Positions 16,734 through 38,441 of a stretch of DNA of 64,000 nucleotides are shown here, piece after piece. A program made the translations under genes and the position numbers. This DNA comes from Thermodesulfobacteriota bacterium (GTDB taxonomy: Bacteria > Desulfobacterota_D > UBA1144 > Nemesobacterales > CSP1-2): NCBI GenBank assembly GCA_035559815.1, contig DATMAT010000057.1, positions 6,359 to 70,358 of the forward strand, written 5' to 3'. Numbering within the stretch: the stretch's first letter is position 1; each line of letters opens with the position of its first letter. A model generated the notes under the pieces. It made no database searches, had not been told where the DNA came from, and worked only from the letters and a program-made list of their open reading frames with translations.

Positions 16734-16866
16734 TTGGCCTGATGGTAATCAAAGGACTTCAATGACGTATAAATAAGAAGCAACCCCTCTTTAATTTTCC
16801 CCTTACCGAGGGGGGAAACACAAGGGGGGATAGAAAAACTATTTGAACTAACAGGGTTAGGACAGC
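16734..16866. repeat. ~130-bp hairpin-containing repeat element, compact copy
   Basis: TTGGCCTGATGGTAATCAAAGGACTTCAATGACG...CAACCCCTCTTTAATTTTCCCC-ttaccgag-GGGGGAAACACAAGGGGGG...TATTTGAACTAACAGGGTTAGGAC. The two halves recur at 30952-31017 and 31285-31335. Confidence 0.55.
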
Positions 16867-18439: not shown

Positions 18440-18465
18440 GGAAATTTTTTGAAACTTTTCGTCTA
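18440..18465 (+). promoter_or_regulatory. ECF-sigma-type promoter motif, copy a
   Basis: GGAAATTTTTTGAAACTTTTCGTCTAAG. GGAA, a 16-nt spacer, then CGTCTA. Ends 37 nt upstream of the GGDEF gene ATG. Confidence 0.5.
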
Positions 18466-18502
18466 AGACTGGCTAAAGGATCAAAAAGGAGGGTGATGGG
18501 AG

Positions 18503-19555
18503 ATGAAGACTAAGGTGGTTTCTTCCGTTGTTAAGTCAGTCTCTGGCCCGGATACACAGCCATCTGTGCAGAGTAAAGAGCTGTCGACATACAATAACCC
18601 GGAGATTGAAGAGCTAAAGATAGTCAGAAATAAAGGGTCAGCGGCATACAAATTCCATACTTTAATATCATACATACCCCTGCCCAAGAGCTACCTCGGT
18701 AAAATCACCCTGCTTATATTTCTAGCCGGATATCTCCCCATCCTGGCTTTCGTACTTTATCTTTTAACTTCTCACCCGAACGACCCGGCTTCAAAGCTTC
18801 AGATTTTCGGCATCAGCCTCGCTTTTGCCCTTCTGGGGCTAGCCGTCACCGCTTACCCGCTGAAATTGCTGCTTTCATCGTTATTGGTAGTCTCTCGCGC
18901 CCTCGACCAGTACATAAACGATAAAAAGATTCCGACGTTGTCCACCAGCCAGATCGATGAACTGGAGAGATTAATGCTGGATATTGAATTTAAGATACTC
19001 GACCTCCAGGGGCACATCCGGTCACTCGAAAAAAGGTCTATGACGGACTATCTAACCGGAATCCAAAACCGGTACTCTGCAGAGAGGCAGCTTAAGGAAG
19101 ATATCGCCCGTGCTCAGAGAAGCGGAAAAGAAATCTCATTAATAATCCTGGATATCGACGAATTCAAGCTTATCAACGACCGTTACGGCCACGATGTGGG
19201 GGATATTTGTTTAAAGCATGTAGTCGAGATAATCCAGGGCGGCATACGCAAGGGAGACTGGCTGGGGAGATGGGGAGGAGATGAATTCGTATTATTACTC
19301 TTCGATTCTGATGAAAAATCCTCGAGAAAAATAGTGGAGCGCATTGGTGACGCGGTGAAGGAGCAACCGGCCTTGACACCCAAGGGCGAGATAAGCATGA
19401 GCCTGAGCGTGGGCATATGCCAGCACAATGGAAAAGACCAAGCGGAGGAGCTTTTCAAGAAGGCCGATTGTGCCCTTTTATTGGCGAAGCGATTAGGAAA
19501 GTCGCAAATAGTCTATTACTCCAATACCCTCCCTATCTCAGCTACACATACTTAG
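18503..19555 (+). CDS. Membrane diguanylate cyclase (GGDEF)
   Basis: 350 aa. Two TM helices, a coiled linker, the RWGGDEF active site, and an intact RKGD (RxxD) I-site 5 residues upstream of it. Confidence 0.85.
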   Translation: MKTKVVSSVVKSVSGPDTQPSVQSKELSTYNNPEIEELKIVRNKGSAAYKFHTLISYIPLPKSYLGKITLLIFLAGYLPILAFVLYLLTSHPNDPASKLQIFGISLAFALLGLAVTAYPLKLLLSSLLVVSRALDQYINDKKIPTLSTSQIDELERLMLDIEFKILDLQGHIRSLEKRSMTDYLTGIQNRYSAERQLKEDIARAQRSGKEISLIILDIDEFKLINDRYGHDVGDICLKHVVEIIQGGIRKGDWLGRWGGDEFVLLLFDSDEKSSRKIVERIGDAVKEQPALTPKGEISMSLSVGICQHNGKDQAEELFKKADCALLLAKRLGKSQIVYYSNTLPISATHT

Positions 19556-19804
19556 CTCCTAACGGTTATTATTAGCGACGCAAATGTTTACGAGAGGACT
19601 TTTCTTGAACCCTTCTTAATAATGTAATAAAATGAGCTATCGAAAAAGGATGGAGGTCGTGATATTCAGCCTAAATTATCGTCAGCCCTCCGCGGCTACG
19701 GACACCTGCCCGAACGTAATTTTCTTTACCGAAGGTTTTACCAGTTTAACCAATATCGAAGAACACCGTATTTCTGCTTTCCTCTAAAAACCTAGGAGAC
19801 AGAA

Positions 19805-22123
19805 GTGGCAAATAAAATTGCTGGAATCAGAGAGAGACCTTTAAAATTAATCTTTATCTCACTTCTTTTAACCTCCTGCACCAGCGCTTTTTTAGTATTT
19901 CTCCTATCCGGCGGGCCTGGCGGACTGCCCATTGTTCCGGCGTTCATAGTTCCCGGAGCAAGGCAACTGGTGGCAACATCCAGCCACCCGCTTGTCCGAT
20001 TCTTCTCCGAGCCCCAGGTCGCTGCAGTGACGCCCGATAACTCCAAGGTTTACGTCACCAACCTAAGAAGCGACTCGGTATCGGTGATAGATACAGCAAA
20101 GGATAGAATAACGGCAACGATACCGGTTGGTAGAAATCCTTTCTCATTGGCCATAACACCAGACGGGACCAAGGTCTATGTGGCCAATTTCGGAAACCTT
20201 TTCCAGCCGGGAAACACCGTCTCGGTGATAGATGCTGAAACGGACGCCGTCGTCGCCACGGTTAGAGTGGGGATTAACCCGGGAGCAATAGCCATAACCC
20301 CGGACGGCTCTAAAGCCTATGTGGCAAACTCCGGATTCTCCGCCTCCGATAACACCGTCTCGGTGATAGATGTGGCCACAGACCAGGTTATCGCCACGGT
20401 AATTGTGGGAATTAATCCCGGGGCGTTAGCAATAACCCCGAATGGCTCAAGAGTCTACGTAAGCAACACCATCAGCAGCACCGTCTCGGTGATCGATACT
20501 TCAACCGACGAGGTAATGGATACGATAAACGTCGGGTTTAACCCAGCGGGGATAGCTATTACTCCCGACGGTTCCAAGGTCTATGTGGCCAACAATCTAA
20601 GCGATTCCGTGTCGGTGATAGACACGTCCAGCAACCGGGTTATCACCACCATTCCAGCAGGGACAGAGCCCTTGATTGTAGCAATAACACCCGACGGCTC
20701 GAAGGCTTACATCACCAGCTTAAGTAGCGACTCGGTCTCGGTGATAGATGTATCAAACGACGCCGTTGTCAACACAATTCCGGTCGGCAATATTCCGGTG
20801 TCCATAGGGATAACGGCGGATAGCTCTAAAGCCTATGTAGGAAACTGTAATTGCGGCATAGCCGACCCGGACAGTCCGGACACCGTATCGGTAATAAACG
20901 TATCGATGGATGAGGTTATTGCCACGATTCCGGTCGGATTTGGGCCGCTCGGCCTGGCCATAACATCAGACGGCTCCAAGGTGTACGTGCCCAGCTCCAA
21001 CGGCAGCACCGTATTTGTGGTCGACACAACTACAGACGAGGTTATTTCGGTAATACCGTCGGGGACAGGACCGGCGGCCATAGCGATAACGCCCGACGGC
21101 ACCAAGGTCTACGTGAGCAACTTTAATAACCCGGACAGTCCAGGCAATACCATATCAGTAATAAATACCGAAACAAACACAGTCGTTGATGAAGTCGAAG
21201 TAGGCATTGGGCCTGCTGCGCTGGCCATAACCCCGGATGGTTCAAAACTGCTGGTTGCTAATTACGGGAGTATATCCGAGCCTGGAAATACCATATCGGT
21301 GATAGAGATTGAGACGAACACGCTGATTGCCGACTTAACTGTCGGAACCGGCCCGATGGCTATTGCCATAAGCCCCGACGGCTCTAAAGCCTATGTGGCT
21401 AATTTTGGCAGTAGCAATTCAGTCGGCAATACCGTGTCGGTGATCGACCTTACTAGCAATACCGTTACACAAAGCATCGGTGTCGGTAATGGGCCTGCCG
21501 GAATAGCCATAACGCCCGACGGCTCACAGGTTTATGTCACCAACCTGGGCGGCGTCGAGGATCCTCCCGATTCCAGCGCTAGAAGCACGGTATCGGTAAT
21601 AGATACCGCAACTAATTCAGTAATCGCTGAGATACCGGTAGGAATTGGTCCCCTGGGCATAGCCATAACCCCGGACGGAACCAGGGCTTATGTGGCCAAC
21701 TTCGGCGGCATTACTTCTTTTAGCGACTTCGCCGCTGGAAATAAGGTGTCGGTCATAGATGTAATAAATAACATATTGATCGGTGAAGTGAACCTCGGAG
21801 ATGGTTTTCTAGGTCTTGGGCCGGCCGGCGTAGCCATAACCCCGGACGGATCTACCATATACGTAACCAACTTCGACATTGTTAATGAGGAGCTATTGGG
21901 CTCGGTCAAGGTTTCTACCCCCGGGGATACTATATCGGTGATAGATTCGACAAGTAACACGGTTACCGAAACTATCAACGTCGGAGAGAGGCCGCTGGGG
22001 ATAGCGATTACCCATGATGGAACTAAGGCTTATGTGGCTAACTACTTCGGCAATAGCGTTTCGGTGATAGATGTTTCGACCAATAGTGTGGCCGAGGAGA
22101 TACCAATTAAAAATGAAAAATGA
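19805..22123 (+). CDS. YVTN-family beta-propeller repeat protein (~17 repeats)
   Basis: 772 aa with a GTG start and N-terminal TM/signal. About 40-aa units of ITPDGSKVYVAN...NTVSVID..T. The repeats are also conserved at nucleotide level (ACCGTCTCGGTGATAGAT recurs). Confidence 0.8.
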   Translation: MANKIAGIRERPLKLIFISLLLTSCTSAFLVFLLSGGPGGLPIVPAFIVPGARQLVATSSHPLVRFFSEPQVAAVTPDNSKVYVTNLRSDSVSVIDTAKDRITATIPVGRNPFSLAITPDGTKVYVANFGNLFQPGNTVSVIDAETDAVVATVRVGINPGAIAITPDGSKAYVANSGFSASDNTVSVIDVATDQVIATVIVGINPGALAITPNGSRVYVSNTISSTVSVIDTSTDEVMDTINVGFNPAGIAITPDGSKVYVANNLSDSVSVIDTSSNRVITTIPAGTEPLIVAITPDGSKAYITSLSSDSVSVIDVSNDAVVNTIPVGNIPVSIGITADSSKAYVGNCNCGIADPDSPDTVSVINVSMDEVIATIPVGFGPLGLAITSDGSKVYVPSSNGSTVFVVDTTTDEVISVIPSGTGPAAIAITPDGTKVYVSNFNNPDSPGNTISVINTETNTVVDEVEVGIGPAALAITPDGSKLLVANYGSISEPGNTISVIEIETNTLIADLTVGTGPMAIAISPDGSKAYVANFGSSNSVGNTVSVIDLTSNTVTQSIGVGNGPAGIAITPDGSQVYVTNLGGVEDPPDSSARSTVSVIDTATNSVIAEIPVGIGPLGIAITPDGTRAYVANFGGITSFSDFAAGNKVSVIDVINNILIGEVNLGDGFLGLGPAGVAITPDGSTIYVTNFDIVNEELLGSVKVSTPGDTISVIDSTSNTVTETINVGERPLGIAITHDGTKAYVANYFGNSVSVIDVSTNSVAEEIPIKNEK

Positions 22124-22128
22124 ATTTT

Positions 22129-22156
22129 GTAGGGGCACATTGCAATGTGCCCCTAC
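22129..22156. repeat. Perfect 28-bp palindrome GTAGGGGCACATTGCAATGTGCCCCTAC
   Basis: Read directly. Starts 6 nt after the YVTN gene stop. Related copies at 41451 and 53393. Confidence 0.7.
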
Positions 22157-22198
22157 TTATCCTAACGTCAACATCGAGGTCGTTAAAAAGGGAAAGCG

Positions 22199-24127
22199 AT
22201 GAAATCAGTTTTGCCAAATGTAATAGATAGAAAGTCACCTCATCTAATTCTTCTCATTGCCGCTCTATTACCGCTAATTTTTAATTTAGCCTGTGATGGT
22301 GGAGAGGACGGAGAAGGAAAGCCTAGCGTCAGTCGTAAAATATTCGTCGCCAGTTCGGGCGGGGACAAAATAACCGTCTTCAATGCCGACGATGATGGTG
22401 ACGCCACACCGATAAGAACAATCGGGTCAAATACCGGGCTCATTAGACCTCAAGCAGTCTACGTTGACACAGTCAATGATGAAATATTCGTGGCCAACAC
22501 CGGGAATAACACAATTACCGTATACAGGAAAGGAGAGGATGGAGATGTAGCTCCTTTAAGAAGCATAGGTGGAGATAACACATTCCTTTTTCGCCCGGTA
22601 GCGATATTCGTCGATACCCAAAATAATGAAATTTTCGTGGCTAACCTATTTTCAATCACAGTGTATGGAAGGACAGACCAAGGGAACGTCTTCCCCACAA
22701 GGACTATAGAAGGAGAAAATACGGGGCTTTCTTTTCCCAGCGGAATATTCGTGGATGCAGAGAACGATGAGATTTTCGTATCCAACACCGAGAACGACAC
22801 CGTCACCGTGTACGGACGGTCGGCAGGGGGAGATGCCTCGCCCTTGAGGACACTATTTGTATTAGATGGAAGCGATAACGGTATCCATGAGACATTGGGT
22901 TTATTCGTCGACGCAAAAAATGGAGAGCTCTATGTGATTGATGCCGTTTTACCGGACTTTCCATCACCAGTCCCGATTACCCGGCCTATCAAGAGCACGA
23001 TAAAGGTGTATGGAAGAGATGCCGAGGGAAATGAACCTCCTTCAAGAACCATCGAGGGAGAAAGCACCGGACTTTTCAATCCTTCCGGCATCTATGTCAA
23101 TAATAATGAGATATTTGTGATTAACTCCTTTAATAACACCCTGACCGTCTATGAAAGAGAAGCCGAGGGGGACGCACCACCTTTGAGAACGCTTACCATA
23201 TTTGACTCTAACGACGCCGGCTTTCGGGCGTTCCGGGGGATGTCTTTGAGCATATCCGTGGATACCGAGGACGGCGAGATATTCGTTTCTAATCTTAACG
23301 ACACAATCACGGTTTATGGTAGAATGGCGGAGGGAAACACGCTTCCAATTAGAATCATAGGATCCCGCACCGGTCTTCTAGACCCAAACTGGATATACGT
23401 GGATACGGAGAACAAGGAAATATTTACCAGTAACTTTTTCAGCCAGCAGGTCACCGTGCACGGAATAATTGACGAAGGGAATGTTGCACCACTAAAAACC
23501 ATACCTCAAGGGCTTTTATCCCCGCAGGGAATTTTTGTGGATACTAAGAATGAGGAGATATTCGTTTTAACCAACGCCGCCGACACTGTCACTGTGTATG
23601 GAATGAGAGATAACAAACCTTTAAGGACGATATTCGGTGGAAACACCGGATTATCCTCTCCCCGGGGTATATACGTCGATATAGAAAGTAACGAGATATT
23701 CGTCACAAACCTGGGCAACGACACCATCACTGTCTACGACAGGACGGCTGAAGGAGACGTAAGCCCTTTGCGGATTATAGGCGGGGATAATACCGGCCTC
23801 CTCGGACCACAGGGAATATTTGTAGATAGAGAAAATGATGAGATTTTCGTTTCTAACTTTTTTACGATCACCGTATATAATAGGACTGCTGAAGGAGACG
23901 CCACCCCTTCCAGGACCATAGATGGGTTTAACACCGGGCTGGACGGGCCAACCGGGATATTCGTGGATGGGGAGAGCAATGAGATATTCGTCACGAACTT
24001 CAACAACAACAGCATCACTGTTTACGACAGGGCGGCGGAAGGGGATGTTGCTCCCTTAAGAAGCTTAGCCGGTCCTCACACCGGGCTTTCATTGCCGTTC
24101 GGAATATTCGTTGCCGATTCGCCATAG
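22199..24127 (+). CDS. NHL-like beta-propeller repeat lipoprotein (~14 repeats)
   Basis: 642 aa. Lipobox IFNLAC. About 46-aa units of P.GIFVD..N.EIFVSN..N.TITVY.R.AEGD..PLRTI.G.NTGL. Confidence 0.7.
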   Translation: MKSVLPNVIDRKSPHLILLIAALLPLIFNLACDGGEDGEGKPSVSRKIFVASSGGDKITVFNADDDGDATPIRTIGSNTGLIRPQAVYVDTVNDEIFVANTGNNTITVYRKGEDGDVAPLRSIGGDNTFLFRPVAIFVDTQNNEIFVANLFSITVYGRTDQGNVFPTRTIEGENTGLSFPSGIFVDAENDEIFVSNTENDTVTVYGRSAGGDASPLRTLFVLDGSDNGIHETLGLFVDAKNGELYVIDAVLPDFPSPVPITRPIKSTIKVYGRDAEGNEPPSRTIEGESTGLFNPSGIYVNNNEIFVINSFNNTLTVYEREAEGDAPPLRTLTIFDSNDAGFRAFRGMSLSISVDTEDGEIFVSNLNDTITVYGRMAEGNTLPIRIIGSRTGLLDPNWIYVDTENKEIFTSNFFSQQVTVHGIIDEGNVAPLKTIPQGLLSPQGIFVDTKNEEIFVLTNAADTVTVYGMRDNKPLRTIFGGNTGLSSPRGIYVDIESNEIFVTNLGNDTITVYDRTAEGDVSPLRIIGGDNTGLLGPQGIFVDRENDEIFVSNFFTITVYNRTAEGDATPSRTIDGFNTGLDGPTGIFVDGESNEIFVTNFNNNSITVYDRAAEGDVAPLRSLAGPHTGLSLPFGIFVADSP

Positions 24128-24186
24128 AGGTTTTAACCATCTTTTGCAATGCTAACGCCCTACAAAAGTTACAGAGGAGACTGGTC

Positions 24187-24381
24187 ATGGTTACCAAAAC
24201 CTGCATGATGAATTGGCTGGCATATAAGGGGGTTCCCACGGTGTATAGAAACACCATTGCAGACGAGGCAGTAAAGGCTACCTCGGCATCAGCGCTCAAG
24301 GCAGCACTGAAAGCAAAGGGCATCCCTCAAACCTGGATTGACATAGGGGTATGGTGTTACTATAAATGCGGCGGGAAGTAG
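24187..24381 (+). CDS. Small hypothetical protein (64 aa), uncertain
   Basis: GAGGAG Shine-Dalgarno about 8 nt upstream of the ATG. C-terminus WCYYKCGGK. No recognisable domain. Confidence 0.25.
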   Translation: MVTKTCMMNWLAYKGVPTVYRNTIADEAVKATSASALKAALKAKGIPQTWIDIGVWCYYKCGGK

Positions 24382-24401
24382 TTAAGACAATGCCAAACTT
24401 A

Positions 24402-24427
24402 GGAAACTTGTCTCAACTTTTCGTCTA
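24402..24427 (+). promoter_or_regulatory. ECF-sigma-type promoter motif, copy b
   Basis: GGAAACTTGTCTCAACTTTTCGTCTAAG. Ends 139 nt upstream of the TPR-CHAT gene. Confidence 0.5.
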
Positions 24428-24566
24428 AGAAGGAGAAAAACAAGCAGGTTTTGATGGTGAAACTGGGTCAGGATGATATCTTTTCGATTAAATTGCATTA
24501 AACTAAATTCTGGCAATCGCAATACTATTTCATACTTTAGCCATCCTTTTAAACCATCAGAAAAAA

Positions 24567-27392
24567 ATGATTGATTTTTCTTTCCTTCATCAAAAGAGCA
24601 TTAATTCCTATCTAGTCATAATGCTGATTACTTTATCTCTACCCTCGTGCGTAACGATAAAAAAAGCGGATATTAAAGTTCAGGACGAAGGAGCAGTACG
24701 GTTAATCACCGAAGGCGGGAAATTGTACGACCGGGGAAGATATGATGAAGCCCTGGGAAAATTCTCTGCGGCGGAGGCAGAGACCAGCTTGCCCCAGGAT
24801 AAAATTAGGATTGCGGACATATTATCCAAAGGCGGCTTCGACCTCTTCGAGAAAAAGCTCTTTGATGCTGCACTTTCCTACTACAACCAATCACTGAAGA
24901 TAAACAGGGTTTTAGATAACAAGCCGGGACTGGTTAATGACTACAGTTACATGGGAAGTATTTACACGGATATAGGAAAATACGACGAGGCGATCCTTCA
25001 CTTCAATCAGGCCATCGAACTGCAAAAGGACATGAATGATAAAGCCGGAGTAGTTCACAACCTGAATAACCTCGCCAATCTCCACGGCTACCTGGGCGAC
25101 TACCAGGAATCTATAAATCTTCTAAACCGGGCCCTTCAGATTAGCCGGAGCACCGACGTCCCGACCCAAACGGCAAGAACACTGATAAATCTTGCCGCTA
25201 TCGATTTTCGCCTGAGAAACTACGAAAAATCTATTGATTACCTAAACCAAGCACTTCAGATTGCGGATAGGGTAAAAAATGAAAACCTGAAAGCGGAAGC
25301 CCTAAACCTAACCGGCGTCGTCTACAGAGAGCAGGGTGAATTCGATAAGGCTTTAGCCAATTACCTTGCCGCGCTGAAAATCAACAAGAAAGAGGGCGTT
25401 GAAGCTGCAATCATAACCAGCCTTAGCACTATTGGCGAATTGTATAAGGAGACTGGAAGATACGGCCAAGCTCTTCAATACATTCAGGAATCTCTCCACC
25501 TGAGCAGGGAATCGAAAAACCAACTGATGACCGCCGTCAACCTGAATTACATGGGGGAGGTGAGATACAAGCAGGGAAAATACGACCAGGCTCTCAATCT
25601 TTACCAATCATCCTTGGGAATCTTTGAAGAGCTTGGGTTCAGGGACCGGATAGCCAGAAGCTACAACAACATCGGTTACCTGAGAGGGGAAACCGGGCAG
25701 TGGGATTCTGCGATCGAGAACCTGGATAAGGCCATCTCCATCTATAAAGACCTGGGAGACAGGGAGTGGGTCCGCATCTCTCTCTTTGGCCGGGGACTTT
25801 ATTCAGAAGAAAAAGGGGACCTTCTTTCCGCAGAAAAAAACTACAAGGAGGCCGTGGATATATTTGAATCGGTTAGAGAGGACGTCGCCGGGGGCCTGGA
25901 AGCAGAGCAAACCTTCAGCGACGTGAACGTGGAGATTTACGAGAGGCTGGTGTCATTGCTCCTGCGGCTTGGGAAAGACGAGGAAGCGCTCGAGTATATA
26001 GAAAGGAGCAGGTCAAAGAACCTCCGGGACACGTTTCTAAGGAGCGGTATCAGCTCTTTTGACGAGAGAACCAGGGGACTCCTTGAAAGATTTGATGAGC
26101 TTTTCAGAAAAGAGGCTTCCATAAACTACCAGTTGGTGAGGGAAAGAGCAAAGGCATTGCCTAACCCGGAGAAGATAGACAATTTAGTAAAAACATTGGC
26201 CAGGACTAGGGAAGAATTTATGAGAATAAATTCTGCTTTAGAGTCCGAAAATCCCAAGCTGTACGGCCTGCTCAGTATAAAACCGGAAGACGTTGCCGAA
26301 CTGGTAAAAAAGAATAGGCTCCCCGGAGACGTTATCTTTGTAGAGTACTTTATCACCGATAAAGAGACCTACATATTTCTCATGAGCGACAGGGACCTGA
26401 AGGTCAAGACCGTTTCTGCGAAGAAAGAGGAACTTGCAGAATTGGTCAAACTGTTTAGAGACCTGATAGAGCTTAATAAATCCATACCCAGCAACCGCTG
26501 GCGGGATGACCAGAGTGAGGAATACGAACAGGCTATAAAACCGCTCAAGAAGACATCATCGACCCTCTACGCCTACCTCATAGAGCCAATCGAGGCTGAG
26601 ATTGCCCCGGCCGAAACCATAGCCGTGATTCCCTTCGGCTCGCTCCATTACCTCCCATTCAACGCCTTGGCAAAAGAAAGGGATGACGGCACGTTGGAAT
26701 TTCTCATAGAAAGGAAGAAGCTCGTCTATATTGTTTCCGCCTCCGCCAATTACCTGGACGTAGTCCTGGGAAACGGCCGTAAAAGAGGAATCGAGAGTCT
26801 GGTTGCCTTTGGCAACCCGGACCTTGGGGAACCGGACCTCGCCCTTCCCTATTCCCAGGAGGAAGTTAAAGCCATAAAAACACTCTTTCCAAACGCCACC
26901 GTGTTCCTGGGAAAGGATGCTACCAAATATAATTTCGAGAGCAACTGGGGGGTGAATGACATAATCCATATGGCCACGCATGCAGTCGTCAAAGGAACGC
27001 CGTCAATACTCTTGGCCCCTTTAGGCACGGGCAGTCTTACCCTGAAAGACATTACCGGGCTGCCCCCTGCCGAGAACACCCATCTTGTGGTGCTCTCCGC
27101 GTGCCAGGCGGCGGTTGTAAGTGACGAAGACGGCCATGCTGCCGAGGAGCTAAACAGTATAGCTCTCGCTTTCAGCATGGTAGGCACCCCATCGGTTATT
27201 GCCACCCTCTGGAGGATAGAGGACAAAGCTACATTTGAGCTGATGGAGGATTTTTATGAGAATTTAAAGAAAGAGGGCAGATTCGATTACGAGGCGTTGA
27301 GAAGGGCACAGTTAGAGATGCTTAAGAGGCCGGATAAATACGGCCAGCCATTCTACTGGGCGCCCTTTATTCTTATGGGGGTATGGGAGTAG
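24567..27392 (+). CDS. TPR-repeat / CHAT-domain (caspase-like) lipoprotein
   Basis: 941 aa. Lipobox LSLPSC, about 8 TPR units (NLANLHGYLGDYQESINLLNRALQI and similar), and a C-terminal CHAT domain with His (IIHMATHAV) and Cys (VVLSACQAA) dyad contexts. Confidence 0.85.
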   Translation: MIDFSFLHQKSINSYLVIMLITLSLPSCVTIKKADIKVQDEGAVRLITEGGKLYDRGRYDEALGKFSAAEAETSLPQDKIRIADILSKGGFDLFEKKLFDAALSYYNQSLKINRVLDNKPGLVNDYSYMGSIYTDIGKYDEAILHFNQAIELQKDMNDKAGVVHNLNNLANLHGYLGDYQESINLLNRALQISRSTDVPTQTARTLINLAAIDFRLRNYEKSIDYLNQALQIADRVKNENLKAEALNLTGVVYREQGEFDKALANYLAALKINKKEGVEAAIITSLSTIGELYKETGRYGQALQYIQESLHLSRESKNQLMTAVNLNYMGEVRYKQGKYDQALNLYQSSLGIFEELGFRDRIARSYNNIGYLRGETGQWDSAIENLDKAISIYKDLGDREWVRISLFGRGLYSEEKGDLLSAEKNYKEAVDIFESVREDVAGGLEAEQTFSDVNVEIYERLVSLLLRLGKDEEALEYIERSRSKNLRDTFLRSGISSFDERTRGLLERFDELFRKEASINYQLVRERAKALPNPEKIDNLVKTLARTREEFMRINSALESENPKLYGLLSIKPEDVAELVKKNRLPGDVIFVEYFITDKETYIFLMSDRDLKVKTVSAKKEELAELVKLFRDLIELNKSIPSNRWRDDQSEEYEQAIKPLKKTSSTLYAYLIEPIEAEIAPAETIAVIPFGSLHYLPFNALAKERDDGTLEFLIERKKLVYIVSASANYLDVVLGNGRKRGIESLVAFGNPDLGEPDLALPYSQEEVKAIKTLFPNATVFLGKDATKYNFESNWGVNDIIHMATHAVVKGTPSILLAPLGTGSLTLKDITGLPPAENTHLVVLSACQAAVVSDEDGHAAEELNSIALAFSMVGTPSVIATLWRIEDKATFELMEDFYENLKKEGRFDYEALRRAQLEMLKRPDKYGQPFYWAPFILMGVWE

Positions 27393-27398
27393 GTTGAC

Positions 27399-27468
27399 AA
27401 TTTCGGATTTCGGAATGCGGATTTAAGTATTTCTTCCGTCCGCAATCTGCAATCCGAAATCCGAAATT
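27399..27468. repeat. Inverted arrays of 7-bp repeats forming a long imperfect hairpin
   Basis: Left side: AATTTCGG ATTTCGG AATGCGG ATTT. Right side: CCGCAAT CTGCAAT CCGAAAT CCGAAAT T. The outer 16 bp (27399-27414 and 27453-27468) are perfectly complementary. Sits between the CHAT stop and promoter motif c. Confidence 0.55.
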
Positions 27469-27474
27469 AAACGG

Positions 27475-27499
27475 GGAAGTTCCCCAGGCTTTTCGTCTA
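27475..27499 (+). promoter_or_regulatory. ECF-sigma-type promoter motif, copy c
   Basis: GGAAGTTCCCCAGGCTTTTCGTCTATA with a 15-nt spacer. Ends 47 nt upstream of the anti-sigma ATG. Confidence 0.5.
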
Positions 27500-27546
27500 T
27501 ACTAATATGTGTTAGTTTAAGTATCGAATTTTTCGGAGATTACTTT

Positions 27547-28152
27547 ATGAAATTAGAAAAAGAAGATGAAATATTGGGTGCGGTGGCGATATCCCTGATT
27601 GAAAGAAAAGGGGGAGAATGCCCTTCTGACGAGGAATTCGCCTTATACCTGGACAGAAAGTTAAACCGAGAGAGGAAAAAGACCCTCATCTCCCACTTTA
27701 TTTCCTGCCCTGCCTGCCGGGACAGACTGGCCGTCTCGAACTTGGCTCTCGAAACCGCCAGAGAGGAAAACATCCTAGAGAAATTACTGACTTTTTTCGG
27801 CCGTCCGCTGGTCATAGCGCCCGTAGCCATCGTAATACTCTTCCTGGCGGCTATAACCCTGAACGTTTATCTAAAATCGTCCAATTTTCCTGACACCGAA
27901 GAAAGATACAGGGGTGGAGATTTAGTCAGCGTAAACCAGGTTGATTTAACCCCTGGCCTCTTGAGAATTATCCAAGAGGGCGACCAGGGGGAATTAAAAA
28001 ATAACCTTGCCAAAGAGCTGCCTCCTCACTCTGAGGTATCGGATATAGTGGTGGAAGAGAGGCTTAAGTCTCTAAAGGACTTAAAGGAGAATGAGAAGAT
28101 AACCTTAATACTTTACAGCGATGGTTTATTGAAGGTGAAGCTAACCCAATAA
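27547..28152 (+). CDS. zf-HC2 anti-sigma factor, single-pass membrane protein
   Basis: 201 aa. HFISCPAC fits the H-x3-C-x2-C motif. TM helix LVIAPVAIVILFLAAITLNVYL, then an extracytoplasmic tail. Confidence 0.65.
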   Translation: MKLEKEDEILGAVAISLIERKGGECPSDEEFALYLDRKLNRERKKTLISHFISCPACRDRLAVSNLALETAREENILEKLLTFFGRPLVIAPVAIVILFLAAITLNVYLKSSNFPDTEERYRGGDLVSVNQVDLTPGLLRIIQEGDQGELKNNLAKELPPHSEVSDIVVEERLKSLKDLKENEKITLILYSDGLLKVKLTQ

Positions 28153-28154
28153 AC

Positions 28155-28946
28155 TCATAGCGTTTGTTCAAATATCTCCTTGATATCGTCGTTGGTTATC
28201 CCCTTTTCTCTCATGTATTTCCCCAGGCTCTTCAGTATCTTTTCTATTCTTTTGTACACCTTTTTCTGGTCAAGCCCGGGAATAGCCCCGGATATCTCCC
28301 TTGCGCTCAAATCTTGCTCGAAATAGAGCTGTAGTATCAGAATATCCTCCTCTTCGAGCCTGTGAACCTCCTCCCTGAGCACTTTCAACACCATCTCCTT
28401 TTTCTCTTTGGCCTCGGTGGTTATCAGACTCTCCTCCGGATTTGCCCCCCTACCCTCGGAGGCAATACCATCTACCTGTTCCCCGAGAAAAACGGTTCGC
28501 TTTTCATCGATCTCATCCATATTCACCCTACTCTCCCTTATCCTTTTTTCCACTTCATCAACCCTTATTTGAGCCTCCTCCGGGGGGATTTTAAACTCCG
28601 CTTGAATGGAATTCTCTACCCAGCCGGGAGACAAATTGTGATAAAAGAAGAGTTTAAAAACATGACGGTTTATCTCGTCGAACGCCCAGTAATACTTGGG
28701 TAAGACCTTATATCCGAATTGACTTCTCCTAAAATCAATGATGAGCTTCCCGGTAACGCTCTGGAGAAATGTCTTAAAGCTCGCCTCCCCGCGGAAGGAG
28801 CCTATCCTCCGGCTATTATCCTCATGTAGCTTCTCCCACACGTACAGGAAACAATCATTGGCCAGGTCGGGGTTGTTAGAAAAGCTCCTTCTACACATAG
28901 ACCGAACTACCAGTATGTCCTCATCAGTTAAGGTCCTATTATCCAT
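28155..28946 (-). CDS. Sigma-70-family ECF-like sigma factor, unusually long (263 aa)
   Basis: Region-2-like FLYVWEKL...FRGEASFKTFLQSVTGKLIIDFRR and region-4-like ILILQLYFEQDLSAREISGAIPGLDQKKVYKRIEKILKSL, separated by ~120 aa that include an acidic linker. Confidence 0.65.
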   Translation of the reverse strand: MDNRTLTDEDILVVRSMCRRSFSNNPDLANDCFLYVWEKLHEDNSRRIGSFRGEASFKTFLQSVTGKLIIDFRRSQFGYKVLPKYYWAFDEINRHVFKLFFYHNLSPGWVENSIQAEFKIPPEEAQIRVDEVEKRIRESRVNMDEIDEKRTVFLGEQVDGIASEGRGANPEESLITTEAKEKKEMVLKVLREEVHRLEEEDILILQLYFEQDLSAREISGAIPGLDQKKVYKRIEKILKSLGKYMREKGITNDDIKEIFEQTL

Positions 28947-29121
28947 TTTATGGTCGGGAAAAAGTAGCTATCTACGGGGTTAATCTGCTAATTCGCTGAT
29001 TAAAAGCCGGGGCTGGAAGCTTATCAATCCTCCATCTGATAATCTCGGCCAAATTCGCAGACCACCATCCGTCCTCGATTTTGAAAAAGATTTTAATACC
29101 ATACGGTCGTAATTAAAAGGG

Positions 29122-29146
29122 GGAATTTTCTCAAGCTTTTCGTCTA
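29122..29146 (+). promoter_or_regulatory. ECF-sigma-type promoter motif, copy d
   Basis: GGAATTTTCTCAAGCTTTTCGTCTATA with a 15-nt spacer. Ends 101 nt upstream of the LuxR-type gene GTG. Confidence 0.5.
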
Positions 29147-29247
29147 TATTCGAACAAGAGAACGAGGAATAAAGGTTATTAAAACCGGATGGATTCAGAC
29201 ATGATTAAAAACCCGAATTTCCATTTTAGCATGAAAAAGGAGGTACC

Positions 29248-29886
29248 GTGGTGAGAGAATCGAATAATCCGATACAAATAGCCTTAGCATCGCGCTCCCA
29301 GTTTTTTCTCCAAGGAATAAAAAGGATTCTCCAGGATGAGGGCGACATAAAGATAGTTGCCGAGGTTATCGATTCAAAAGAGGTCAAGAAATGTATTAAA
29401 GAGATAAAACCGGACTTTATATTTATCGACAATAGAACCCCGGAGTTTAGCATCCAGGATCAACTGAATTCCTTGATTAATAAAAATTGCACTACCCGGT
29501 TTATCTTATTCGACACCTATAGGGGGGAAAAACATTTTTCACGAAACATCGTATATATAAGCAGGGAAGCAGGCTCCAAAGAATTAATCGAGAGCGTGAG
29601 AAAAAACAGCCGGAGTAATGAAGGTGCTCAAGACAGGAAAGATTACTCGGGCCATGACAAAAATAGGCTTACAAACAGGGAAGCAGACATAGTTAATTTA
29701 ATCAAAATCGGCATGAGCAACAAAAGAATTGCTCAAAGACTCTCCATAAGGGAAAAAACGGTGAAGGCAAACCTGACCAATATTTTTACGAAACTACAGG
29801 TCCAAAGCAGGTACCAGCTCCTAGTGCGGGCCAGGCAGCAAGGCCCTAATAATTCTTCAGAACATGAATTTTCAAAAACCGGCTAA
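29248..29886 (+). CDS. LuxR/NarL-type regulator with an atypical (pseudo-)receiver domain
   Basis: 212 aa. C-terminal HTH LTNREADIVNLIKIGMSNKRIAQRLSIREKTVKANLTNIFTKL. The receiver-like N-terminus has IALASRS where the acidic DD pair normally sits, and retains FIFIDN. Confidence 0.7.
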   Translation: MVRESNNPIQIALASRSQFFLQGIKRILQDEGDIKIVAEVIDSKEVKKCIKEIKPDFIFIDNRTPEFSIQDQLNSLINKNCTTRFILFDTYRGEKHFSRNIVYISREAGSKELIESVRKNSRSNEGAQDRKDYSGHDKNRLTNREADIVNLIKIGMSNKRIAQRLSIREKTVKANLTNIFTKLQVQSRYQLLVRARQQGPNNSSEHEFSKTG

Positions 29887-29903
29887 GGATAGGAGGCTTT
29901 TCC

Positions 29904-30344
29904 ATGGCTACAGCTCAAAACCTGGAAAGGAACGGCGCAACAGCGGATATAAAAGCAATATGCAGGTGGATACAAAAAAAGCTGGGCGTAAGCCAGCCTG
30001 AAACACTCATAGTACCCATATATAACCACATAAACGAATACAGCCCAAGGTACATCGCCAGACGCCTCGCCGAAAAAGACACCAAGCTGAGGGTATTTTT
30101 CCACTTTAAGGACATGAACGATTACATCACCCTTTCGAGTAATGGGCAATTAAATGTGAGAGACGGGCAAGAAGAGTTGTTCAAGGCCTGGGGAATCTCT
30201 CAATTCAGAGACCTTAACCCTCAAACCATCTTCCAGGAGCTTGAGGGCAGAATAAGAAAAATAAACGTTATATCCTTCTCCGATTATATGAATCATTCCT
30301 TTAACTCCTACTCCGACTTTATAGAGTGGCTGTCTGAAGGGTAG
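29904..30344 (+). CDS. Hypothetical protein, likely co-transcribed with the LuxR-type gene
   Basis: 146 aa. GGAGG Shine-Dalgarno and a 17-nt gap after the upstream stop. No recognisable domain. Confidence 0.4.
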   Translation: MATAQNLERNGATADIKAICRWIQKKLGVSQPETLIVPIYNHINEYSPRYIARRLAEKDTKLRVFFHFKDMNDYITLSSNGQLNVRDGQEELFKAWGISQFRDLNPQTIFQELEGRIRKINVISFSDYMNHSFNSYSDFIEWLSEG

Positions 30345-30399
30345 ATTCAAGTAGCGATTATGTTTCATCCCTCTACTCAATATTTTCATCAGAAGACAG

Positions 30400-30700
30400 G
30401 ATTAGTTCTAAGAATGAAGCACCCCGCGGCAAGCCGCAGTGTATCAATACATACGCATGTACTCTAACGCGACATTGCGAGAGTTGCGATGCAATATGTT
30501 TAGATTCCTCACGTTTGTTCGGAATGACAAAAGCGGTTTTGCAGTCTCGGAAACGCAAATAGGGTTCTGTCATTTCGAAGGGAGAAATCTTAGTTTTTGG
30601 GAAACCTTTTGTCACATTGCTTCGTCGCGGAGTCTATCCTGAGGAAATCGAAGGACTCCTCGCAATCAGCGGAAACTCTGTGGCAAGCCACAGCGAATTC
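30400..30700. repeat. MITE-like repeat tract
   Basis: Contains AGATTCCTCACGTTTGTTCGGAATGAC, GTCATTTCGAAGGG and TTGCTTCGTCGCGG...CGAAGGACTCCTCGCAAT (compare 18170-18235), plus small hairpins GCGGCAAGCCGC and TGTGGCAAGCCACA. Confidence 0.5.
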
Positions 30701-30720
30701 TCAAGTTAAATTCATCAGAG

Positions 30721-30746
30721 GGAAATATCCATGAACTTTTCGTCTA
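30721..30746 (+). promoter_or_regulatory. ECF-sigma-type promoter motif, copy e (orphan)
   Basis: GGAAATATCCATGAACTTTTCGTCTAGT. No credible ORF for ~720 nt downstream. Confidence 0.4.
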
Positions 30747-30951
30747 GTACTTACGTAAGACAGGGATGATAAATCAGAACTAAGGCAACTACATACTCTC
30801 CAAACCTCCTGGCCGGCGCCGTTCCTCGCCCCATCGAACACGGCGCTGGCTGGCTAAGAAAGCTTGAAGTACCGGACAGTCAAATATGCTTTAATCTCGT
30901 CTTAAAGGTGGTTAATTATCCTCGCTCCCGGGTCAAGATGTTTTTATTAGC

Positions 30952-31335
30952 TTGGCCTGAAGGTAATGAAAGTACTTCAATGACGGAATAGGAAAAAGCA
31001 ACCCCTCTTTAATTCTCGTCTCAATAAGCCTGTCCTAAGCCCAGTCGAAAGGGCTATATCAAGCACGGTCGAAGGGTTGAAGTATGTCGATTTTGTCATT
31101 CCGAGTCTTGTCCCGAACTAACGTGAGGGAGCTTGCCAGGAATCTTAAGTAATAGCTTACTTATCTTCCTAACCAATACCTTAAGATTTCTCACGTTCGT
31201 TCGAAATGACATCCTCACTCTTTAATCCCACCTATAGACCCGCCCTGAGCATGCTCGAAGGGGCTGCCCTTAGGAGTCAAATTAGGGGAGAATACAAGGG
31301 GGTAAGAGGTTATTTAACAAATAGGTTCAGGACCG
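30952..31335. repeat. Second copy of the 16734-type element, split by a ~267-bp nested insertion
   Basis: Left half 30952-31017 and right half 31285-31335 align with 16734-16866. The hairpin loop is replaced by 31018-31284, which itself contains a GTCATTCCGAG...CGAAATGAC element at 31095-31210. Confidence 0.55.
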
Positions 31336-31472
31336 GTCAGGGCTGAAAATGGCAGGGTAAGAAATGATCCCTCCGAATAACAAATTACCCAAGCTCAGGA
31401 GCTTCACCAAAGATTGAAATTTCCGATTACCAATGTAATTTTCTAGGGGTAAACTCGCTGGGTAAGCACTTA

Positions 31473-33620: not shown

Positions 33621-34094
33621 CTAAACAAAACAGATGCCCCCATATCCGGGTAGCGTCACAGTGGAACAGGACGCACCGACAAAGGGAATCGGAACACAAA
33701 TTCTATTTCTGCAGAGGCAGGGAGTAGTAGAGAAAAATGTCATAATTGCAGTTCCGGCGATCTGTCCCGATACGCTCGATGTGCGTGCTATAGCGCCCGG
33801 CATATATGCAATCAAGTTACGATCACATTGGCAATCAAGATATCCGCGGCGACCGTAGCAGAGGTCATGTTCCCTACATACTGCATCGACTGCGTCTATG
33901 GGCGGTGTATTTCCGGTTGGATCACCGAATCCGGGCCCGCAGTAATTGCCGTAAACCGGGACGCTGAGTTGTTGCGGCAATACCGGATCTTGTTTGGAGC
34001 GTAGGTTTATCTTTACGCCTTTATTGTCAATGCCGTAACGCTTTATTTGCCTGCCTAAGCTGGCCTCCGCTTTAAATCCTGGCACCTTGTTCAT
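33621..34094 (-). CDS. Leader-bearing protein P8 with a phospholipase-A2-like domain (157 aa)
   Basis: AAAGGAG Shine-Dalgarno. N-terminus MNKVPGFKAEASLGRQ. YCGPGFGD, then about 17 aa, then CREHDLCY, which is the secreted-PLA2 Ca-loop and His-Asp motif arrangement. Confidence 0.7.
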   Translation of the reverse strand: MNKVPGFKAEASLGRQIKRYGIDNKGVKINLRSKQDPVLPQQLSVPVYGNYCGPGFGDPTGNTPPIDAVDAVCREHDLCYGRRGYLDCQCDRNLIAYMPGAIARTSSVSGQIAGTAIMTFFSTTPCLCRNRICVPIPFVGASCSTVTLPGYGGICFV

Positions 34095-34118
34095 TTCATT
34101 CAACTCCTTTTTTTGTAT

Positions 34119-34925
34119 TCACCGGTCGTAGTAAGGTGACATCTTTGTAACCAAGAACGGAAACTCCGACCACAAAAGCGCAATGGCACCTGTTACAAAT
34201 GGGGCTGCAGCACTAGTTTCTCCAAATGTGAGCGACTTGCCATTAGCCCCGAGGCTGGTAATGTTGTCGCCGGGAGCGCTTAGACCTCGCTTTCCGATAG
34301 AACTTCCTAGGTTCGAGTAGTTAATCGGTCTACCTTGAAGGTCGCAGGCAACAACCGGAATAACCCACGTGTGACCGGTAACGGCAGAACTTCCGATAGT
34401 CCCCTGATTCCCAGCCGCCGCAACAACAATAACACCACCCCTTGCAGCATAATCTAGAGCCTTTTCTAATTCGCGCTCACCTTTAGATGATGGTTGTGCA
34501 AGTGCAGCGCTTAGGTTTATTACACGCGCACCTGCATCAATGGTCTCTATGATTGCCCCTGCAAGCTCCTCTGGGGTTGCGCTTGGCAGGGATTTAGCGG
34601 GCTCACCCCAGGTCTGTCTGTTTCCCGATGCCCTCTCTGAAAAAATGGGACGTACAAGCAGTGTGCAATCAGGACAGATTGCCGGAGCTAGAGAACCCCT
34701 CCTACCGCACAAGATGCCTGCCACAAACGTCCCATGCATACAGGCAGCACTGCTTGCTACGGTGTATGTCCCATCCAGTTTTCCAGGAACCTCGCGGATA
34801 TTTTCACCTGTAAGGCTGGGATGGTTAATTATGATGGGGCCATCTATTAACCCAACTGTAATTTCGGGTCTACCGCTTGTGAGTTCCATCAATGCTGTGA
34901 GCTTGACCACATCCAAAGGATTCAT
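34119..34925 (-). CDS. Subtilisin S8 peptidase, second copy, C-terminally truncated and fused to the tail of the PatG-DUF-like gene (possibly decaying)
   Basis: 268 aa, highly similar by eye to the peptidase at 41599-42495 up to LLWSEFP. It then ends FLVTKMSPYYDR, identical to the last 12 aa of the protein at 40062-41006. GLIDGP, HGTFVAG and AAAGNQG are kept, but the Ser motif reads GETSAAAP (Gly to Glu). No obvious Shine-Dalgarno. Confidence 0.65.
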   Translation of the reverse strand: MNPLDVVKLTALMELTSGRPEITVGLIDGPIIINHPSLTGENIREVPGKLDGTYTVASSAACMHGTFVAGILCGRRGSLAPAICPDCTLLVRPIFSERASGNRQTWGEPAKSLPSATPEELAGAIIETIDAGARVINLSAALAQPSSKGERELEKALDYAARGGVIVVAAAGNQGTIGSSAVTGHTWVIPVVACDLQGRPINYSNLGSSIGKRGLSAPGDNITSLGANGKSLTFGETSAAAPFVTGAIALLWSEFPFLVTKMSPYYDR

Positions 34926-35001
34926 AGTTTCATCTATGAATCCTTGTTTAACCGAAAATTCCCATTTTAAATAAACTTGTTTATATCTAAGCCTTTCCTA
35001 G

Positions 35002-35283
35002 TGCCATTGTCTTACAAAGAATAGGTTATTGTCAAGGAAAATTTTTTCTCCCTACTTTACTTCTGAGGAAGATGAAAATTACGTAGATACTGTAAAATTT
35101 TTGAGAATGTAGAAAGAGGTGAGTTAAAAGCTATAACAAGCAAAGTCCCCGACTTCACTCAGATAGCTGTAGGAGTTTTGAGGAAGGTGAGAACTTTTCT
35201 TACAAACGATCTGGATTTCAAGGAAATAGAGAGCATAAGAGTTATACAATTAAGTAACTTTAAAACGGTCAAGCAACCTTAAA
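35002..35283 (+). pseudogene. Degraded PIN-domain (VapC-like) remnant
   Basis: Open frame without a start codon reads ...ERGELKAITSKVPDFTQIAVGVLRKVRTFLTNDLDF. The PIN-like ending KEIESIRVIQL is only reached after a 1-nt shift in an A-run near 35220. The N-terminal catalytic region is absent. Confidence 0.3.
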
Positions 35284-35512
35284 TGTCTTTCCGATAAGAA
35301 CGAGTCCTTCTAACTCTTCTCTCTCAAGCTTTCTTCTAATCTCGTCAAATTTCCTTACAGTATCGGGTGCGTAGAATCTCTTACCACATTTTAGACATAC
35401 CTCAAGCCATAACCCTAAGAACTGCCGTGTTAGTTCCACCTCATAGGAGCTTATCAACTTCCTTTTCGACGATTTCCCCTCCACACACAGGACATTTATC
35501 AAATAGCTTCAT
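35269..35512 (-). pseudogene. YgiT-type zinc-finger (MqsA-like antitoxin) gene with an internal frameshift
   Basis: ATG at 35512 overlaps the upstream stop as ATGA and encodes MKLFDKCPVCGGEIVEKEVDKLL, then stops at 35441-35443. The second zinc knuckle (EVCLKCGKRFYAPDTVRKFDEI) continues in another frame, which is the listed ORF 35269-35502. Confidence 0.5.
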
Positions 35513-35847
35513 CCCTTTGTTAAAACCTCAATAATATTTTTCATATTCTCAAATACTTCTTCTACCGATGGCTCTTCACACGGCACATGCTTTCCTGCCT
35601 CCCCAAAGGGATGATAGTGCCATCCCTTCAGATTATCAATTCCATAAATCCTCTCGTTCTTATGTATCAGTGCAAAATCTTTCCTTTCAGTCTCACAGTT
35701 AGCATAAATGTCTATCAGTAAATCTTGTTGAAAAGTAATTCGAACATATAGGTGAGTATTTCGAACTATATTGTATTGAAGCGTAACTAGAGGGAAGAAT
35801 TTCTTAGAGGCGTTATTTATCTCTTCTAAGAAGCGATTTAAATCCAA
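35509..35847 (-). CDS. DUF6516/TumE-like putative toxin
   Basis: 112 aa. RIYGIDNLKGWHYHPFGEAGKH resembles the DN..H.HP...H core I associate with TumE-family proteins. Translationally coupled to the zinc-finger gene. Confidence 0.4.
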   Translation of the reverse strand: MDLNRFLEEINNASKKFFPLVTLQYNIVRNTHLYVRITFQQDLLIDIYANCETERKDFALIHKNERIYGIDNLKGWHYHPFGEAGKHVPCEEPSVEEVFENMKNIIEVLTKG

Positions 35848-35859
35848 AAAGGCACCTTT

Positions 35860-36189: not shown

Positions 36190-36245
36190 TTAACTACACA
36201 GATTCTACCTTCCTATAATGACAAATGTCAAAAAACTAACTCCAT

Positions 36246-36539: not shown

Positions 36540-36681
36540 GTACCTCTTTTACCCAAGACTTGTCCTGGCGTCTACTTCTTTTATCCCTCTAAGCCGTGCC
36601 CTAAGGCGACATCTTGGCGACTAGGAATAAGAACTTCTCAGCTAGATCTTAAATAACCACCTCTTCTCTCTGCAGTTGATC

Positions 36682-38388: not shown

Positions 38389-38441
38389 TTCATCAACCCC
38401 CATTTATTTCAGATTATCCCTACAGCAGCCGACCTAAACCC

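Follow-up and report, generated by a model that had tools for sequence, protein, structure and literature searches.

The closest described system to the locus considered here is DdvS/DdvA of Myxococcus xanthus, in which a sigma factor of the extracytoplasmic function (ECF) type is paired with a CHCC zinc anti-sigma factor that is fused to a periplasmic TPR-CHAT part, approximately 900 residues (PMC6061681, PMC11506125). The ddvS and ddvA genes are co-transcribed and autoregulated from PddvSA, the DdvS regulon comprises CBASS and CRISPR-Cas defence, and the authors propose that the CHAT domain clips the anti-sigma factor as the first proteolytic step (PMC6061681, PMC11506125). Four local promoters of this regulon, of the form GTAA-N16-CGT, have been mapped by 5'-RACE (PMC6061681). 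Here we describe a locus in a 64 kb stretch of DNA from a Thermodesulfobacteriota bacterium, referred to below as the window, in which five near-identical copies of a short two-block motif lie around the genes for a 263-residue ECF-like sigma factor (28155..28946, minus strand), a zinc anti-sigma factor and an exported TPR-CHAT protein. It is probable, judging from sequence and its conservation, that RNA polymerase with this sigma factor reads the five motifs as promoters, and that the locus forms an envelope-signalling sigma/anti-sigma switch.

The likeness to DdvS/DdvA lies in the CHCC anti-sigma factor with its single transmembrane helix, in an extracytoplasmic TPR-CHAT protein with a His-Cys dyad that is tied to a sigma factor, and in the small local regulon with few near-identical promoters (four of GTAA-N16-CGT there, five of GGAA-N15-CGT here). 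Unlike in DdvA, the TPR-CHAT protein is not fused to the anti-sigma factor, which has an outer domain of its own of approximately 90 residues, and unlike in ddvS-ddvA the sigma and anti-sigma genes converge and no motif precedes the sigma gene. Searches of the PDB gave no sequence match to DdvS, to which the sigma factor seems unrelated in sequence. A defence island of the DdvS kind was also considered and found no support, since PADLOC models applied to nine locus proteins (the sigma and anti-sigma factors, the TPR-CHAT protein, both propellers, the 146-residue and 64-residue proteins, and the GerE and GGDEF proteins) returned only generic TPR and helix-turn-helix matches and no cas or defence match.

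In the type III-E craspase (Cas7-11/Csx29/Csx30/CASP-sigma RpoE) a TPR-CHAT protease is likewise linked to a sigma factor and a sigma inhibitor. The sigma factor of the window matches the CAS_III-E_sigma model NF041236 with an E-value of 0.0012 and the CHAT domain matches the Csx29 model NF041237 at 2.4e-8, both far below the cut-offs. Unlike in the craspase, neither Cas7-11 nor CRISPR was found at the locus, the cas models having been applied to the nine locus proteins and not to the whole window. The craspase is cytoplasmic and CRISPR-guided, whereas the TPR-CHAT protein described here has a lipoprotein signal and is therefore predicted to be extracytoplasmic, and in place of Csx30 the inhibitor is a zinc anti-sigma factor in the membrane. 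The overall logic of an ECF sigma factor under regulated proteolysis is shared with SigW/RsiW, RpoE/RseA and AlgU/MucA. The locus differs from these in its 263-residue sigma factor, which has an insertion of approximately 90 residues and fails Pfam thresholds, in the absence of a sigma-anti-sigma operon and of autoregulation, and in its candidate site-1 protease, a CHAT caspase-like lipoprotein in place of DegS, PrsW or CtpB. Full-text literature searches found no paper on the 263-residue sigma family or on an ECF group with a separate CHAT lipoprotein. The locus very probably represents an uncharacterised sigma/anti-sigma regulon, that is, a fairly ordinary bacterial stress-signalling circuit with an exported caspase-like protease as its unusual partner. 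It offers a testable regulon, with promoter consensus and targets, for an uncharacterised sigma family of uncultured Dadabacteria-like Thermodesulfobacteriota, in which one envelope-signalling switch would join a CHAT protease, propeller lipoproteins, c-di-GMP (cyclic di-GMP) synthesis and second-tier regulators. ECF-like sigma/promoter pairs of this kind could also serve as orthogonal parts in synthetic biology.

The motif in the window and in related genomes

Both strands of the window were scanned, and expectations were taken from 100 shuffles of the window that preserved dinucleotide composition. The pattern GGAA-N14-17-CGTCTA has five matches, all on the plus strand, with starts at 18440, 24402, 27475, 29122 and 30721; the mean in the shuffles was 0.50 and none of the 100 reached five. 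The 11-mer CTTTTCGTCTA occurs in exact form at these five positions and nowhere else in the window. When scored with a weight matrix trained solely on sites of other genomes, from which the window sites were excluded, the five sites reach 25.3-32.7 bits and the sixth-best position on either strand reaches 4.8 bits. An initial sequence-only reading of this DNA had reported the five plus-strand copies, conservation extending beyond their core and, by eye, no further copy in the window, and all of this is borne out. The five sites are intergenic, and what they share is a motif of approximately 30 nucleotides (nt) set in unrelated flanking DNA.

The motif is asymmetric and consists of two blocks, (G)GGAA and CGTCTAA, separated by 15 nt. 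Anchored on CGTCTA, the five sites align without gaps, and the apparent difference between an N15 and an N16 spacer reduces to GGAA (two sites) versus GAAA (three sites) at one fixed position of the -35 core. The -10 block is an invariant CGTCTAA, the -35 block is (G)GGAA(A/T), without a C, and 15 nt lie between GGAA and CGT. ECF promoters typically combine a G/AAC-type -35 with a CGT-type -10. Of the ECF-type architecture proposed earlier, the motif shows the two blocks and a CGTC-type -10; the proposed spacer variation vanishes in the fixed register and the -35 lacks the C. Four of the five sites lie 37-139 nt upstream of a plus-strand start codon, those of the GGDEF, TPR-CHAT, anti-sigma and GerE/LuxR genes, as had been assigned, and the fifth has no adjacent open reading frame (ORF). 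Pfam and NCBIfam searches agree with the gene identities given at that stage.

The first site, P1 (18440..18465, plus strand; 30.0 bits), is 37 nt upstream of the GGDEF gene and has an orthologous site before the GGDEF gene in L002/L061 and L066 (L-numbers denote loci from related genomes and P-numbers such as P0064, used below, sigma relatives). It probably drives an operon of the GGDEF gene, the two propeller genes and a 64-residue ORF. P2 (24402..24427, plus strand; 30.0 bits) is 139 nt upstream of the TPR-CHAT gene, which is preceded by a site in L002, L008 and L066 also. P3 (27475..27499, plus strand; 25.3 bits), 47 nt upstream of the anti-sigma gene, is the most constantly conserved: wherever a locus takes in the anti-sigma gene, a site precedes it. 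P4 (29122..29146, plus strand; 30.8 bits) lies in the intergenic region upstream of the sigma gene, points away from it and is upstream of the GerE/LuxR gene. P5 (30721..30746, plus strand), at 32.7 bits the best in the window, is approximately 730 nt upstream of an AMP-binding gene.

The sigma factor has 43 homologue clusters of 54-98% identity, all from metagenome-assembled genomes (MAGs) that bear such labels as Thermodesulfobacteriota, Deltaproteobacteria and bacterium HR37; one relative is labelled Candidatus Dadabacteria, a class of Thermodesulfobacteriota. The DNA around nine of the homologues was compared, and motif scoring covered both strands of 14 loci from approximately 10 genomes, approximately 238 kb in all. 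In every fetched locus the sigma gene is convergent with an anti-sigma gene of approximately 200 codons, which is preceded by a TPR-CHAT gene of approximately 930 codons, with a propeller gene of approximately 770 codons usually just upstream of the latter. The motif was found in all of these loci. Approximately 10 related uncultured Thermodesulfobacteriota/Dadabacteria-like genomes, with sigma factors 54-66% identical to that of the window, bear it at corresponding places, so that positions are orthologous even though the proteins of these genomes share 54-66% identity and the DNA between their genes cannot otherwise be aligned. The 14 loci hold 36 sites above 15 bits, all intergenic. Each precedes, in the same orientation, the anti-sigma gene, a propeller/TPR-CHAT gene, a GGDEF gene (in some genomes) or the regulator gene divergent from the sigma gene, the exception being the gene-less P5 sites of the window and L066. 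The gene for the 263-residue sigma factor is the invariant neighbour of the motif sites. The arrangement of motif and genes in these relatives supports the earlier proposal that the ECF-like sigma factor encoded nearby reads a local regulon.

The regulator divergent from the sigma gene varies, being an RpoD/RpoS-family sigma factor in six relatives, a sigma54 activator in L008 and a GerE protein with a 146-residue protein in the window, L002 and L047. The RpoD/RpoS-family genes follow directly after the divergent motif (L001 8390-9532, L006 8670-9818, L007 8420-9547, L012, L052 and L063 1144-2232), and their products have 362-382 residues and regions 1.2-4. They score below every NCBIfam equivalog cut-off and are probably not the principal sigma factor. 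This arrangement suggests a sigma cascade in the six relatives that is absent from the window. In Streptomyces the ECF sigma factor ShbA is reported to transcribe the principal sigma gene hrdB (PMC12019637). The six relatives resemble ShbA-hrdB in having the motif directly upstream of an RpoD/RpoS-family sigma gene, by which an alternative sigma factor would drive one of group 1/2 type, and differ from it in that the downstream sigma factor falls below the RpoD/RpoS equivalog cut-offs and in that the window lacks the arrangement.

A stringent pattern, GGGAA-N10-11-CTTTTCGTCTAA, which catches approximately 40% of the known sites, was used to scan 185,579 species-representative genomes. There were 56 matches, where base-composition arithmetic predicts approximately 140 by chance, and eight of them lie within or next to the sigma locus in six genomes that have the sigma gene (L012, L024+L061, L046, L047, L052+L034 and L063). 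These eight are all intergenic and fall within the top nine by full-matrix score, and most of the other matches are inside long ORFs of unrelated taxa. No stringent match was found outside the locus in the sigma-bearing genomes, where approximately 8-9 more would be expected if sites were equally numerous elsewhere. The regulon thus looks local. A full-consensus intergenic motif of 38 bits was also seen in L041 (1178-1210, minus strand), a 4.8-kb contig labelled Dehalococcoidia, with no obvious ORF after it. It adjoins a 128-residue DUF1360-type gene and a large unannotated gene, in which it resembles L008, and the contig may be a misbinned fragment from the same lineage.

The sigma factor and the reading of the motif

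The sigma gene had been named as the only one near the motifs, and local hidden Markov model searches with two sigma profiles detected no other sigma-70 relative in the window. Its 263-residue product is ECF-like with sigma2 and sigma4 domains, and with 54.3 bits it exceeds the cut-off (42.9) of the NCBIfam model TIGR02937 ('sigma70-ECF'), but it has no Pfam match at threshold. All 27 aligned members of the family match Pfam Sigma70_r2 and r4 below threshold, and in none of the 27 was there a match to Pfam r3. An AlphaFold2 model (predicted local distance difference test score 73) places a sigma2-like bundle at residues 7-76, three helices at 90-140, a disordered segment at 140-173 and a sigma4-like domain at 169-246. 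ECF (group 4) factors have no sigma3 domain and only a short linker at this place. Here approximately 90 residues separate sigma2 from sigma4, and over that part there are weak colinear matches to FliA/WhiG and SigB/F/G. The sigma2 and sigma4 domains that the ECF class calls for are present, and the protein is, to judge by its sequence, a divergent, ECF-like member of the sigma-70 family with a long insertion rather than a textbook ECF sigma factor.

In an exhaustive profile search the sigma family forms one cluster at 50% identity, and next to it come unnamed sigma factors of 245-295 residues that align over their full length and whose best NCBIfam matches are ECF models in sigma2 and sigma4 and FliA/WhiG models just before sigma4. 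Alignment by hhalign of the family with the RpoD-like sigma factors of the related loci, by which the insertion might have been recognised as a sigma3 domain, gave nothing meaningful, the profiles being low in diversity. The gene context of the next-nearest relative, P0064 (E-value 7.6e-27), is quite different, with TIR-WD40 and trypsin-like genes, and the module is therefore confined to this narrow family.

A second conserved element, TATTAAAATCT, is found in 10 loci as a single copy on the sigma-sense strand, with 83-217 nt between it and the sigma ATG. A TTTTAA/TTGATT-type hexamer lies 16-17 nt upstream of its TAAAAT, and the window (29088..29118, minus strand) has TTTTAA-N17-TAAAAT, a putative housekeeping-type promoter that would be the sigma gene's own. 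A generic scan for promoters and terminators returned fewer sites than in shuffles. The -35 hexamer of the putative sigma promoter directly abuts the G-run of P4, the two standing back to back, which suggests that binding of polymerase at P4 and at the sigma promoter is mutually exclusive. This back-to-back arrangement may also explain why the sigma gene keeps P4 at its side whereas the gene that P4 precedes varies.

Several points weigh against the assignment of the motif to the 263-residue sigma factor, which rests on association. Most ECF sigma factors autoregulate, and the cognate anti-sigma gene is usually adjacent and co-transcribed, whereas no site above 15 bits was found on the sigma strand in any of the 14 loci and the sigma and anti-sigma genes are convergent and not co-transcribed. 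With no copy of the motif before it, the sigma gene is without the autoregulation usual for ECF factors. Compared with the classic ECF 'AAC', the -35 block has no C, and the spacer falls 1-2 nt short of common ECF spacing. P5 has no adjacent ORF. The genomes in which the stringent pattern pointed to a local regulon are incomplete MAGs, scanned at the limited sensitivity given above.

The lack of a motif before the sigma gene, and with it of autoregulation, would be accounted for if the motif were the promoter of another sigma factor encoded elsewhere, such as the RpoD/RpoS-family protein found beside the locus in many relatives, the 263-residue protein being a mere neighbour. That protein is indeed part of the locus in six relatives. 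However, the loci of the window, L002, L004 and L008 have the motif and no RpoD-like sigma gene, the only invariant regulators beside the motif are the 263-residue sigma factor and the anti-sigma factor, and a two-block GGAA...CGTC architecture fits ECF-like sigma2 and sigma4 domains rather than a group 1 or 2 sigma factor. We regard this explanation as quite unlikely. It is very unlikely that the motif is instead an operator for a DNA-binding transcription factor and no promoter core. A candidate for such a factor, the GerE/LuxR regulator, is encoded in the locus and the conserved block CTTTTCGTCTAA exceeds the usual length of a -10 element, but LuxR/GerE proteins usually bind inverted repeats and the motif has no dyad symmetry. 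Its orientation always follows that of the downstream gene (36 sites, the gene-less P5 sites aside), its two blocks keep a fixed 15-nt spacing and it is retained in loci without a GerE gene (L001, L004, L006 and L007).

Short dispersed repeats are abundant around P5, and the copies might be taken to be left over from a dispersed repeat or from a mobile element, or to be chance occurrences, with no regulatory role. This is scarcely credible in view of the restriction of the shared sequence to the motif itself, the failure of any shuffle to reach five copies and the orthologous positions held in genomes with such diverged proteins. Transcription from the motifs by the 263-residue sigma factor is thus the reading that we prefer.

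The circuit that we infer from this arrangement takes in the identity of the sigma factor as reader of the motif, the positions of the start sites, the interaction between anti-sigma and sigma factor, the kind of signal and the part played by the CHAT protein. The sigma gene would be transcribed constitutively from its own conserved housekeeping-type promoter, and the CHCC zinc anti-sigma factor would hold the sigma factor inactive at the membrane. An envelope signal, sensed via the outer domain of the anti-sigma factor together with the TPR-CHAT protein and the propeller lipoprotein or lipoproteins, would release the sigma factor, which with RNA polymerase would then fire P1-P5, a small and mostly local regulon. 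The output would comprise the propeller and TPR-CHAT lipoproteins, the anti-sigma factor as negative feedback and, in the lineage of the window, the GGDEF cyclase and hence c-di-GMP, with the AMP-binding enzyme as a probable addition. A second regulator (GerE/LuxR with the 146-residue protein or, in relatives, the RpoD/RpoS-family sigma factor or sigma54 activator) would extend the response into a cascade. More speculatively, expression of the sigma factor could be damped by transcripts that start at P3 and run convergently into its gene, and by the overlap of promoters at P4.

The anti-sigma factor and the TPR-CHAT protein

The anti-sigma gene (27547..28152, plus strand) ends 2 nt from the convergent sigma gene and encodes 201 residues (198-204 across the loci). 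A cytoplasmic CHCC zinc anti-sigma domain is followed by one transmembrane helix (residues ~85-110) and an extracytoplasmic alpha/beta domain of approximately 90 residues. There is a weak zf-HC2 match, C25, H50, C54 and C57 are invariant, and the signature of class I zinc anti-sigma (ZAS) factors, H-x3-C-x2-C with an upstream Cys/His ligand in an N-terminal helical domain, is present. The N-terminal part of the structural model matches RsiW, RslA and MucA/RseA, and a search of the PDB with the anti-sigma sequence returned no match. The protein is identical to one from an NCBI Thermodesulfobacteriota MAG (VNN20_14265), and its sequence has also been assembled from SRR7882662. In most loci the leader of the gene (27500-27546 in the window, and its orthologues) contains TGTTA(g/a)(g/a)TT, an element of weak conservation.

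The TPR-CHAT gene (24567..27392, plus strand) encodes a predicted exported lipoprotein of 941 residues, with Pfam matches to TPR_12 (2.5e-61) and CHAT (3.4e-53). Three residues do not vary among seven orthologues, namely the lipobox Cys, the His within H[LM]A[AT]H[GA] and the Cys within LS.C. A search of the PDB with the full protein was swamped by TPR proteins; with the CHAT part alone, the Cys region aligns with the TPR-CHAT protein of the craspase (7x8a, E-value 0.004; also 8d9f). With its His-Cys dyad intact, the protein has the appearance of a caspase-like protease that is exported and potentially active. It is encoded by a separate gene of 924-972 codons with its own lipoprotein signal that adjoins the anti-sigma gene in every locus, and it may act either as the activating protease or merely as an effector of the regulon. 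We tentatively suggest, as a possibility rather than an expectation, that the exported protein, perhaps loaded by a propeller lipoprotein, is a signal-activated site-1 protease that acts in trans, cutting the anti-sigma factor in its outer domain and thereby freeing the sigma factor. It would then amount to a 'split DdvA' and to a periplasmic, CRISPR-independent counterpart of the craspase. If this were the case, the sigma factor would induce the protease and its substrate and not itself, and the response would therefore be a self-limiting pulse. The locus would also provide a separable two-protein system for testing CHAT-dependent cleavage of an anti-sigma factor, which for DdvA is so far a hypothesis. 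Because the TPR-CHAT protein and the anti-sigma factor are separate proteins, they could make a simple in vitro model for CHAT-initiated anti-sigma proteolysis, a step suggested for DdvA and paralleled in the cytoplasm by the craspase.

Other genes of the locus and neighbouring DNA

The operon that probably starts at P1 begins with the gene for a membrane GGDEF diguanylate cyclase of 350 residues (18503..19555, plus strand; Pfam GGDEF 1.1e-41, TIGR00254 2.3e-45) with hydrophobic segments in residues 63-131. The next gene encodes beta-propeller protein 1 (19805..22123, plus strand), a YncE/lactonase-like protein of 772 residues by its Pfam matches and a predicted lipoprotein (LLTSC) by its N-terminus. 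Its homologues adjoin the TPR-CHAT gene in L001, L002, L004, L006, L007, L012 and L052, making it a conserved member of the module. Beta-propeller protein 2 (22199..24127, plus strand), of 642 residues, was assigned on the same grounds and has NHL repeats, a signal peptide and a lipobox-like FNLAC; it is also present in L002, L008, L024 and L066. Last in the operon, before P2, is the 64-residue ORF with a Cys-rich C-terminus that ends in WCYYKCGGK (24187..24381, plus strand). It has no Pfam or family match, is called as a 64-residue gene in L002 and L066, and could encode a small secreted or modified peptide.

Downstream of P4 is the gene for a NarL/LuxR-type regulator of 212 residues (29248..29886, plus strand) with a GerE helix-turn-helix (1.3e-15) and a degenerate receiver-like N-terminus (Response_reg 0.005), its NarL-family matches being below the cut-offs. 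The usual acidic pair of the N-terminus is apparently replaced (...ALASRSQ...), and the regulator may act without phosphorylation. It is followed by the gene for the conserved 146-residue protein (29904..30344, plus strand), for which Pfam and NCBIfam gave no family match. Homologues of this protein are present in L002, L008, L047, L063 and L066, and in several relatives the gene is downstream of the regulator gene.

The AMP-binding gene beyond P5 (31473..33086, plus strand; Pfam AMP-binding 9.6e-69) encodes an acyl-CoA-synthetase-like enzyme. P5 is conserved in L066, a 98%-identical strain, and absent in L002. In the window and L066 approximately 730-760 nt of repeat-rich non-coding DNA separate it from the AMP-binding gene, which in L002 comes directly after the homologue of the 146-residue protein and has no site of its own. 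It is probable that the AMP-binding gene belongs to the regulon, by read-through in L002 and from its own promoter P5 in the window. The predicted RNA fold downstream of P5 was not better than that of shuffles (z = -1.26), which gives no support to a structured small RNA, and an Rfam scan of 17.5-32 kb (E<=1) gave only sub-threshold chance matches. The 1.1-kb gap after the 146-residue gene (30345-31472) contains many short dispersed repeats, one copy of which recurs at 16734-16796. In L066 an extra gene for a 295-residue beta-helix/NosD-like protein (7393-8280) lies in this gap upstream of P5, and the gap is therefore a recent insertion/deletion hotspot.

Adjoining the sigma locus, and without motif sites, is a minus-strand cluster (33621-41057) with a PatG_D/PatG_C-domain protein (40062-41057), a Peptidase_S8 fragment (34119-34925) and a phospholipase-A2-like ORF (33621-34103), together with eight ORFs of 107-139 residues and one of 321 residues that have no Pfam match. 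The cluster may be a cyanobactin-like peptide-maturation cluster. Related DNA is present in L066 (325-4364) and in L008 (15365-17248), and in L008 a PatG-like S8 protease of 627 residues is encoded inside the locus, between the TPR-CHAT gene and the NHL propeller gene.

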